Positions 16,540 through 17,752 of a stretch of DNA of 64,000 nt are shown here, piece after piece; the stretch's first letter is position 1, and the number at the start of each line of letters is the position of its first letter. A program made the position numbers and the translations under genes. Under the pieces are notes generated by a model that saw only the letters and a program-made list of their open reading frames with translations, had not been told where the DNA came from and did not search any database. Source of the stretch: a virus; the IMG/VR virus record IMGVR_UViG_3300028045_000010, positions 1-64,000 of that record; one strand, 5' to 3'.

Positions 16540-16812
16540 TTACAAATCACCGAAAATATTTCTCATTTGTTCTGCACTCTCTATCTGTATAGGCTCACTA
16601 AGTGGACCTACTGCTCTAGAGATGATTCCTATAGTCGCATTATGAGTTGAAGGGCTTACAACTAAATCATAACTTATAACACTAATATCATTTTCTCTAA
16701 TATAAACTCCAGGACTAATAAATTTTTGTGGTGAATATAGTTCAATTAATAACTTCCTTTTATATACTGTTGATTGAAATTTTAAATGTTTTATCATATT
16801 ACTCTTGCTCAT
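16540..16812 (-). CDS. Small protein: YKRKLLIE motif plus tail-sheath N-terminal fragment
   Basis: FISPGVYIRENDIS...GPLSEPIQIESAEQMRNIFGD matches the start of T4 gp18-type sheath proteins. Confidence 0.75.
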   Translation of the reverse strand: MSKSNMIKHLKFQSTVYKRKLLIELYSPQKFISPGVYIRENDISVISYDLVVSPSTHNATIGIISRAVGPLSEPIQIESAEQMRNIFGDL

Positions 16813-16819
16813 GGTTCAA

Positions 16820-17161
16820 TCAAATTTTATCTAGAAAAGAATCTTGAAATCTACGTCCACCTCTCCTTCTACTCCTTCTACTCTTAGGTTTTTTATAAGT
16901 TTCAATTAATAACACCCTCTTATATAAATCTTCATGATAATGGAGTATACCAGCTGGCAGTTCCATTGGCTGAACAGAAACTAAATCATTTCCTATAGTA
17001 TTGGCCATCACTCGTCTTGCTACAGGAAATGTAAATGCTCCAACCTCAATGCAAAAGCTTTTCTTTTCAATAAGAAGCTCTCTCTTATATATGTTTTCAT
17101 TTTTTGGATGAACTAATTCATACCACCTAGACAATGCTTTATGTACTGACAAATCACTCAA
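16820..17161 (-). CDS. Small protein: major capsid (gp23-like) fragment bracketed by two YKRxLLIE motifs, with Arg-rich tail
   Basis: FPVARRVMANTIGNDLVSVQPMELPAGILHY resembles gp23 VRRAIPNLIAFDICGVQPMNSPTG. Confidence 0.75.
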   Translation of the reverse strand: MSDLSVHKALSRWYELVHPKNENIYKRELLIEKKSFCIEVGAFTFPVARRVMANTIGNDLVSVQPMELPAGILHYHEDLYKRVLLIETYKKPKSRRSRRRGGRRFQDSFLDKI

Positions 17162-17427
17162 TTAATTATTTTTATAAGTCCTGATTTTACACATTTTTCT
17201 ATATTTTCAAAAGTCATAAAGTTATATCTATGAGAAACTGGTGGGCTGCTTGTAAACCAGGAATTATAACAACCTTCATTTTCAGGAGGGTTTACATCTT
17301 CACTATAGAAATATACCATATTCCTATTGATTTTCCATATGTAGAATTTTTTATTTAAAATATTATTATAAATTCCACTAAATGTAATAAATGGAAAATA
17401 TTCTATTATTAAATTTCTTTTACTCAT
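17158..17427 (-). CDS. Small protein starting with the KRNLIIE motif; cargo unidentified
   Basis: MSKRNLIIEYF; overlaps both neighbours, suggesting translational coupling. Confidence 0.65.
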   Translation of the reverse strand: MSKRNLIIEYFPFITFSGIYNNILNKKFYIWKINRNMVYFYSEDVNPPENEGCYNSWFTSSPPVSHRYNFMTFENIEKCVKSGLIKIIN

Positions 17428-17752
17428 TCTGTAAGTTTATTAAATTACCTAAGATTTCTCTATCAATTTCTTGAGCTAATTGTCTTGATAGCATATCTGT
17501 TAGTTCAGCTTCAACATCAAATGGATTAAATTTTTTTGGTACATACTTTTCAATTAATAATATTTTTTTATATACATTCTCAGGCTCTTCAGGCTCATAA
17601 CTATGAGTATAGTAGTCTAAATCTTGAGCAAGTTCAGGAGTCCAAGAACATCTTAAACGTCTAGTTTCTCCTGTTACTTGAACAGAAGTTAGTTTTAAAG
17701 AAATCTCCCTAACCTTTTCTATTAAAAGATTTCTTTTAAATACAGTATCCAT
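17420..17752 (-). CDS. Small protein: major capsid (gp23-like) central fragment with two KxxLLIE motifs
   Basis: ISLKLTSVQVTGETRRLRCSWTPELAQDL...DVEAELTDMLSRQLAQEIDREIL matches gp23 SRQLKAAYSIELAQDL...DADAELSGILATEIMLEINREV. Confidence 0.8.
   Translation of the reverse strand: MDTVFKRNLLIEKVREISLKLTSVQVTGETRRLRCSWTPELAQDLDYYTHSYEPEEPENVYKKILLIEKYVPKKFNPFDVEAELTDMLSRQLAQEIDREILGNLINLQNE

Follow-up and report, generated by a model that had tools for sequence, protein, structure and literature searches.

A cassette of four small, tightly packed open reading frames (ORFs A to D) on the minus strand of an uncultured virus record, between positions 16540 and 17752 of the analysed stretch, is predicted to encode mini-proteins in which excerpts of virion proteins, namely the gp23-type major capsid protein and the tail sheath, are joined to a conserved peptide tag. 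The stretch (hereafter the window) comprises 64 kb of the 72,059-base record IMGVR_UViG_3300028045_000010 (CheckV completeness 22%, G+C 29.5%), and is contained in sequencing runs from 16 studies, labelled mostly as seawater or marine metagenome. Four syntenic relatives were recovered from IMG/VR (L004, L005, L015 and L016; DNA divergence 16-41%). The mini-genes are not debris, as their frames are open in diverged relatives and the tag is conserved at the protein level. By analogy with the internal proteins of phage T4, we tentatively read the four products as capsid-directed, protease-processed mini-proteins, an interpretation that is plausible while falling short of probable. A blastn search of the locus against deposited phages gave no match, hence there is no close relative among them, and the best match of the helicase gene of the record is 29.7% identical. 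A literature search found no description of such tagged mini-genes, in line with the statement in a preliminary description of this DNA that no system of this architecture was known.

Virion-protein excerpts and the peptide tag

The tight packing attributed to the four ORFs was borne out: A (17420-17752, 110 amino acids [aa]) and B (17158-17427, 89 aa) overlap by 8 nucleotides (nt), B and C (16820-17161, 113 aa) overlap by 4 nt, and a gap of 7 nt separates C from D (16540-16812, 90 aa). A consists of an N-terminal tag, a gp23 strand segment, an internal tag and a gp23 spine-helix segment, while B has an N-terminal tag followed by 80 residues without recognisable origin. C begins with a gp23 propeptide-like N-terminus, followed by a tag, the conserved N-terminal block of gp23 (VQPM region), a second tag and an arginine-rich tail (residues 91-113, 16823-16891) that is basic in 13 of 13 aligned family members. 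D has a short N-terminus, a tag and an N-terminal segment of the tail sheath (residues 28-89, 16546-16731).

The capsid segments proposed for A and C were recovered by profile searches. A matches Pfam Gp23 (PF07068) with 51.6 bits, against a cut-off of 24.4, over profile positions 129-163 (strand segment, residues 14-46, 17615-17713) and 167-198 (helix segment, residues 79-107, 17432-17518), and the stretch of C between its two tags matches the same family with 26.5 bits over profile positions 9-44 (residues 44-76, 16934-17032). The profile comparison that the preliminary description had recommended was made with hhalign against 27 full-length gp23 sequences and returned probabilities of 99.6% for the A family and 98.8% for the C family; it also confirmed the motif-bearing insert in the linker of A, which comprises 27 residues, tag included, between strand and helix. 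C thus aligns with the N-terminal part of gp23, including a conserved LLxE, and A with the strand and the long helix. Neither is a full-length capsid protein, as A covers profile positions 129-198 and C positions 9-72 of 376, and their products measure only 110 and 113 aa as compared with 520-660 aa for 68 full-length gp23 examples. Unlike in gp23, the A gene comes before C, giving a permuted order, and A is split by the tag insert; no capsid could be built from A and C. The virion-derived portions (cargo) are 37-56% identical to 79 gp23 frames, closer to the family consensus than to any one lineage. A metagenome scan for gp23 was dominated by true capsid genes, as 76 of 80 loci are frames of at least 374 aa or are cut by a contig end, leaving four small closed frames. 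AlphaFold modelled A with a mean predicted local distance difference test score (pLDDT) of 54.5, confident only for the C-terminal helix (residues 80-108), and the score of 0.02 for a predicted A + C complex has no bearing on binding in either direction.

The cargo of C is the most conserved N-terminal block of gp23 and, judging from position and conservation only, probably the Gol-equivalent region. In this it resembles the Gol peptide of T4 gp23, the trigger of Lit via EF-Tu, which lies in the first quarter of the protein (PMC3014915), although at residue level the likeness is by position only.

The claim that D carries a sheath N-terminus was upheld, since hhalign (96.9%, E 2e-10) places its residues 28-89 on residues 2-59 of four tail sheaths. 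A tblastn search with D found matches in 194 phage records; among the 25 matches listed, 18 fall on annotated tail-sheath genes and 7 in unannotated records, and the match begins at the annotated sheath start codon in all three annotated records fetched. Single-sequence scores are weak, with 7 of 15 D family members matching phrog_23 (best E 0.0028), and a profile search of solved structures with D found no sheath. D stops after the segment equivalent to sheath residue 59, and no match to PF04984, representing the sheath core domains, is present in the five records (this one and those of the four relatives). The proposal that every ORF carries virion cargo thus holds for A, C and D and fails for B, in which none is detectable with Pfam, PHROGs or protein collections. 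B has no match in the protein atlas either, and a search of 1.84 billion representatives returned two true relatives and one spurious hit.

Six copies of the tag motif had been counted in the locus, of which five conform strictly to [YF]K[RK].L[LI]IE and the sixth, at the N-terminus of B, is a variant, SKRNLIIE (17401-17424). The strict motif has five matches in the six-frame translation of the window, all within this locus. A carries FKRNLLIE at residues 5-12 (17717-17740) and an internal tag of 14 residues, NVYKKILLIEKYVP, at residues 59-72 (17537-17578), which is the best-conserved stretch of the A family. C carries YKRELLIE at residues 25-32 (17066-17089) and YKRVLLIE at residues 80-87 (16901-16924), and D carries YKRKLLIE (16741-16764) before its sheath segment. 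The extended consensus is VYK[KR]xLL[IT]EKYxP, approximately 13 residues, in which the Glu is invariant and preceded by Leu two and three residues before it, with a varying intervening residue (I, T, V or L). Codons for Leu, Ile and Arg vary synonymously between the copies, indicating a peptide repeat that is selected as peptide rather than a DNA repeat. The first tag ends at residue 12 in A, at residue 9 in B and at residues 8-9 in the relatives of A. As noted in the preliminary description, LLIE fits the I/LxE rule of the T4-type prohead protease gp21, which cuts after the Glu (PMC12991175); the site of T4 gp21 itself is written 'LIE-9' in PMC9026906.

The first tag of C aligns on the conserved LLxE column of full-length gp23, in which Glu is found in 27 of 27 sequences, L, I, V or M two positions before it in 27 of 27 and a small residue after it in 24 of 27. 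The T4 gp23 propeptide comprises 65 residues (PMC5694885, PMC9958956), and the T4 sequence has L63-T64-E65 at its end, that is, it is cut after E65. Mapping the LLxE column onto this cleavage site by alignment was unsuccessful because L63-T64-E65 falls in an unaligned insert, so that the equivalence is one of motif and position only.

Outside the cassette the tag recurs sparingly. A looser pattern gave 32 matches in the 300 kb made up by this record and the four relatives' records, as compared with less than one per record in shuffled sequences; 21 are in cassettes, 5 at the C-terminus of a helix-turn-helix (HTH)-like neighbour and 6 elsewhere. The HTH-like protein (18920-19222) ends with a tag variant in all five genomes, YEKKLLTEK in the window (YEKKLLTE at 18953-18976, minus strand) and YEKK[IL]LIE in L004, L005, L015 and L016. 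Its matches to HTH_26 (21.7 bits, cut-off 22) and to LPD3 (E 0.0036), which we take to be a domain of polyvalent proteins, are both below cut-off. A 53-aa ORF on the minus strand (12395-12556), upstream of a PcfJ-like gene of 646 aa (10462-12402), ends in VYRKKVIIEKY, close to the internal tag of A (variant YRKKVIIE near its C-terminus, 12416-12439). A 610-aa protein without known family (2407-4239, minus strand) contains NKRYIVTEK, which is kept in a relative (G003, near 78463) and may be a chance match to the looser pattern.

Conservation and turnover of the mini-genes

The cassettes of L005, L015 and L016 contain A, C and D, and that of L004 contains A and D together with a 29-codon remnant of the tag and basic tail of C; B is present in the window cassette and absent from those of all four relatives. 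The frames, described previously as intact in the window, are also open in every relative that has A, C or D. Neutral simulation at 16-41% nucleotide divergence left only 0.2-3% of copies stop-free for A or C and 1-9% for D. Searches of a large protein collection yielded tagged relatives of A (22, at 57-99% identity) as well as matches to C (12) and D (11), all with open frames. Four sequencing runs contain substitutions, but no insertion or deletion, within the four ORFs; in run X2 a second haplotype has 11 differences over the B/C junction (17091-17213), none of which creates a stop and one of which turns the TTG start of C into ATG.

Frameshifts and neutral evolution in relatives had been named beforehand as marks of a pseudogene. 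The frames are open, and the ratio of non-synonymous to synonymous substitution rates (dN/dS) is mostly below 1 (A 0.22-0.81; C 0.30-0.63; D 0.53-1.7), but it exceeds that of the neighbouring YqeY (0.07-0.32) and HTH-like (0.19-0.52) genes and is at least 1 for some D pairs. Selection on the mini-genes is therefore relaxed or diversifying, not absent. D differs between L005 and L016 by 13 non-synonymous and 0 synonymous changes. The mini-genes often show much less synonymous divergence than their neighbours (0.21 for A between the window and L004, versus 2.2), suggesting exchange of the cassette between phages. Conservation is concentrated in the tags: 7 of the 15 invariant columns of the A family fall in the internal tag, with a mean pairwise identity of 0.85 for the tag versus 0.60 for the cargo, and across families the corresponding values are 0.72-0.85 for internal tags, 0.60-0.66 for cargo and 0.29-0.57 for linkers.

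The modular architecture of tag plus virion excerpt, together with the cargo turnover anticipated in the preliminary description, was found in the relatives, between which modules are gained, lost, fused and split. P0004 consists of A joined to the start of D, and P0049 is a fusion of C and D with three tags. In P0022 a tail-protein N-terminus (phrog_350, E 7.7e-12) is joined to the second half of A, a case to be treated with caution as the source contig measures 1.4 kb. A further relative, P0015, is encoded on a 390-kb contig. Other uncultured phages have an untagged single-chain 'mini-gp23' (P0023 family, 135-146 aa, proteins P0023-P0037; L017, 126 aa) that matches Pfam Gp23 with 84-87 bits and has the strand and helix part followed by the VQPM block, thereby matching A then C both in the two gp23 parts present and in their permuted order. 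Unlike the cassette products, these are one chain without YKRxLLIE tags and have a different C-terminal extension. Their loci include L017 4959-5339, L044 2016-2426 and L059 389-790; in L059 an 81-aa mini-ORF copying the gp23 C-terminus lies just upstream (Pfam E 0.0011, below cut-off). AlphaFold gave a mean pLDDT of 39.5 for the single-chain form. An A+T-rich metagenome contig (L062, 3502-4339) has an ORF of 211 aa in which a gp23 piece (Pfam 69.6 bits) is placed among three tags of a different but similar type, R.V[LI]FEK, and the preceding ORF begins with the same tag; a second cargo of this contig was considered as a terminase and rejected, having no terminase match in Pfam or PHROGs. Mini-capsid genes, tagged or untagged, are thus not a one-off but occur in several unrelated uncultured phage lineages.

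Possible roles of the mini-proteins

The preliminary description had assigned the unit to an early operon with a host-type promoter, rather than to the late site, and neither part was supported. Sigma-70-like matches are at chance in the window (19 found, 23.1 expected), as is the Bacteroidetes-type promoter TANNTTTG (110 versus 110.2), with none of the latter upstream of A. Two minus-strand TATAAATA boxes (TATTTATA on the plus strand), which we take to be the T4 late-promoter consensus, lie 58 and 75 nt upstream of the ATG of A (17803-17810 and 17820-17827). This motif is twofold enriched in the window, with 40 matches versus 19.6 +/- 5.0 in shuffled sequences. Four copies of it are crowded into the 74-nt divergent spacer (17753-17826), two per strand. 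An RNA sequencing run made from an oligo-dT library (X20) yields contigs on the neighbouring plus-strand gene (17849-18143) and, on or beside the operon, only pieces of 31-36 nt with 3-5 differences, which have no bearing on expression either way.

According to the interpretation that we tentatively favour, the cassette would be translated into mini-proteins, each comprising virion-protein excerpts linked to the conserved tag, which would itself copy the propeptide boundary of the capsid protein. The tags are read in this way because their Glu/Leu spacing fits I/LxE, because they stand at the N-terminus of A and B, and because the first tag of C lies on the gp23 LLxE. A T4-type prohead protease would cut the tag after Glu in I/L-x-E, and the tag would probably also serve as a docking signal for the prohead core, in the manner of the capsid targeting sequence, 10 residues long, that T4 internal proteins carry. 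The mini-proteins may be made alongside the late proteins and drawn into assembling proheads, where cutting at the tags would yield peptides of 20-60 residues: a capsid strand, a capsid helix, a Gol-like block, an arginine-rich peptide and a sheath N-terminal arm. As a last step, which is the weakest and our preferred guess, the released pieces might be packaged with the DNA and injected to counter host defences, in analogy to T4 IPI*.

The T4 capsid targeting sequence is described as the first 10 residues of internal protein III (IPIII), residues 4 and 7 being important to targeting, and 8 and 10 to processing (PMC9026906). In position and size the N-terminal tags of A, B and the relatives of A resemble this sequence, which favours the proposal, and tags at every junction of fused forms such as P0049 are the pattern to be expected of a polyprotein. 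The better conservation of tags than of cargo counts in its favour, as would the two TATAAATA boxes upstream of A with the enrichment of this motif, and the arginine-rich tail predicted for C. The fast evolution of the mini-genes appears to parallel that of the T4 internal proteins, which are reported to be diverse and conserved in the targeting sequence only (PMC3012670). Like the gp21-processed proteins IPI, IPII, IPIII and Alt of T4, the cassette products have a short peptide at the extreme N-terminus that ends in hydrophobic-x-Glu, unrelated and fast-evolving cargoes with the tag alone in common, and at least one basic tail. They also share a possible role in host conflict, as T4 IPI* is injected and blocks GmrSD (PMC3012670, PMC9026906). 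If the tags are loading and cutting signals, the idea of a capsid targeting sequence would extend from T4 to uncultured marine giant phages, and a ready-made tag would be at hand for placing cargo in heads of this kind.

A number of observations weigh against this proposal. No full-length gp23, sheath or prohead protease gene is present on the 72-kb record (22% complete) or on the records of the four relatives. A search for the prohead protease family Peptidase_S77 (PF03420) gave no match in the five records (11-27% complete), and is uninformative since a control search likewise found none in 14 genomes. The 30 larger ORFs of the window gave 10 PHROG matches, none of them to a T4 head, tail or late-transcription gene, and no late sigma factor was found among them. 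The residue after the tag Glu is K, T, L or Y and the residue before it hydrophobic, whereas the gp23 LLxE column is small and polar there, so that the tags could be poor protease substrates. The T4 targeting sequence is N-terminal, whereas the tag described here is longer, has its own consensus and also occupies internal positions, up to two in one protein, as well as the C-terminus of the HTH-like protein; the cargoes are virion-protein excerpts rather than folded inhibitors. A sheath piece has no obvious business inside the head. Finally, the proximal TATAAATA box is kept in L015 and absent in L004, L005 and L016.

The mini-proteins might instead remain in the cytoplasm as decoys or sponges, in which conserved capsid and sheath epitopes, or the many I/LxE sites, would blunt sensors of the Lit/Gol-EF-Tu, Avs7 or CapRel type or compete with protease trip-wires such as the CD-NTase loops of cyclic-oligonucleotide-based anti-phage signalling systems (CBASS). 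We consider this rather unlikely, while noting several points that are consistent with it. C carries the most conserved N-terminal block of gp23, and the Gol region, which binds EF-Tu, is reported to be the best-conserved portion of that protein (PMC3014915). Avs7 is reported to sense capsid proteins together with EF-Tu (PMC13581612), and prohead proteases are reported to set off CBASS through cleavage of a loop at I/LxE-type sites (PMC12991175). Raised dN/dS and the 13 to 0 excess of non-synonymous changes in D would fit an arms race, and the cargo matches the gp23 family consensus rather than a single lineage (best identity 56% among the 79 frames). Yet the tags remain constant in relatives in which the cargo departs from the canonical epitopes: L005 and L016 have an altered spine-helix motif, and L004, L005 and L016 lack the SPGV motif of the sheath. 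There is no known tail-sheath sensor, and PMC13581612 mentions the sheath only as something that might be targeted in future. Lit-type systems could be triggered by an exposed Gol-like peptide as readily as blocked by it, and neither early-promoter signal (sigma-70-like or TANNTTTG) rises above chance.

We take the A and C pieces to be the strands and helix by which neighbouring elements of HK97-fold capsids are joined, and the D piece to be the N-terminal arm of the sheath. Such excerpts of inter-subunit contacts could modulate assembly by capping capsid or sheath subunits, so as to poison co-infecting T4-type relatives or to restrain premature polymerisation of the phage's own subunits until a template displaces them. 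The putative contact-element identity of the pieces would speak for such a role, which we regard as improbable. The untagged single chains join the same two gp23 parts in the same A-then-C order, suggesting that the parts act together, and no independent folding is predicted for either A or the single-chain form, as expected of peptides that fold on a partner. Against this, the tags, the most conserved parts, would have no role, B lacks virion cargo, C is dispensable in L004, and, unless the phage's own proteins are different, consensus-like cargo would poison these as well. If the excerpts prove to be decoys or caps, this would be the first phage found to keep trimmed copies of the most conserved contact or recognition pieces of virion proteins as separate genes, which would bear on the sensing of the core phage proteome by bacteria and on the response of phages to it.

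With a hydrophobic core flanked by basic residues, the tag has a composition typical of chaperone-binding peptides. It may accordingly mediate the docking of a set of accessory proteins onto a different partner, such as a chaperone, an unfoldase adaptor or a host factor, the virion cargo being incidental raw material, a reading that seems about as doubtful as a role in assembly. The occurrence of the tag at the end of the HTH-like protein in all five genomes and of the 53-aa ORF is consistent with this possibility, as are its pairing with unrelated cargo in B and the variant R.V[LI]FEK tag around a gp23 piece in another lineage (L062). By contrast, 21 of the 32 loose-pattern matches are inside the cassette beside virion-derived pieces, one tag lies at the homologous place of gp23's own LLxE, and no partner has been identified.

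More doubtful still is a more elaborate form of the interpretation that we favour, in which the cassette would package and deliver mimics of the phage's own 'pattern' epitopes that are tag-loaded, protease-trimmed and injected with the DNA to occupy Lit/EF-Tu, Avs7 or CapRel-type receptors before the late proteins appear, the tag being a portable capsid-loading signal of marine giant phages. The cassette would share with the polyvalent proteins of phages and conjugative elements the stringing of many conflict-related modules in one product that is delivered with DNA (PMC5512222), but those are very large multi-enzyme proteins as opposed to structural excerpts of 20-60 residues, and the sole link is the weak LPD3 match of the HTH-like neighbour.

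That the cassette is recombination debris, with capsid and sheath gene fragments that are in decay and have stayed open fortuitously, is contradicted by the evidence and very improbable: dN/dS above that of the neighbours (at least 1 for some D pairs), the decay of C to a remnant in L004 and the lack of a confident fold in either structure prediction are as might be expected of it, yet the frames are open in all relatives having them and in 22 (A), 12 (C) and 11 (D) database clusters, at stop-free frequencies of 0.2-3% (A or C) and 1-9% (D) among neutral copies, the four sequencing runs have no insertion or deletion in the ORFs, and the tags are kept through synonymous change.

Neighbouring features of the window

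Downstream of D lies a fifth co-oriented ORF (16151-16534, minus strand) encoding a small, hydrophobic protein of 127 aa from a TTG start, or 112 aa from the ATG at 16489, without a Pfam or PHROG family match. ORFs of matching size come after D in all four relatives, and in the window a terminator-like hairpin (16099-16145, minus strand) closes the unit. Elsewhere, an 810-aa protein (8027-10459, plus strand) consists largely of repeats with a recurring SHAEG motif and is probably a fibre or adhesin. Three consecutive plus-strand genes encoding 637-758 aa (48434-54666) all match the pre-neck appendage family phrog_4775, making them candidate tandem paralogous tail spikes or fibres.

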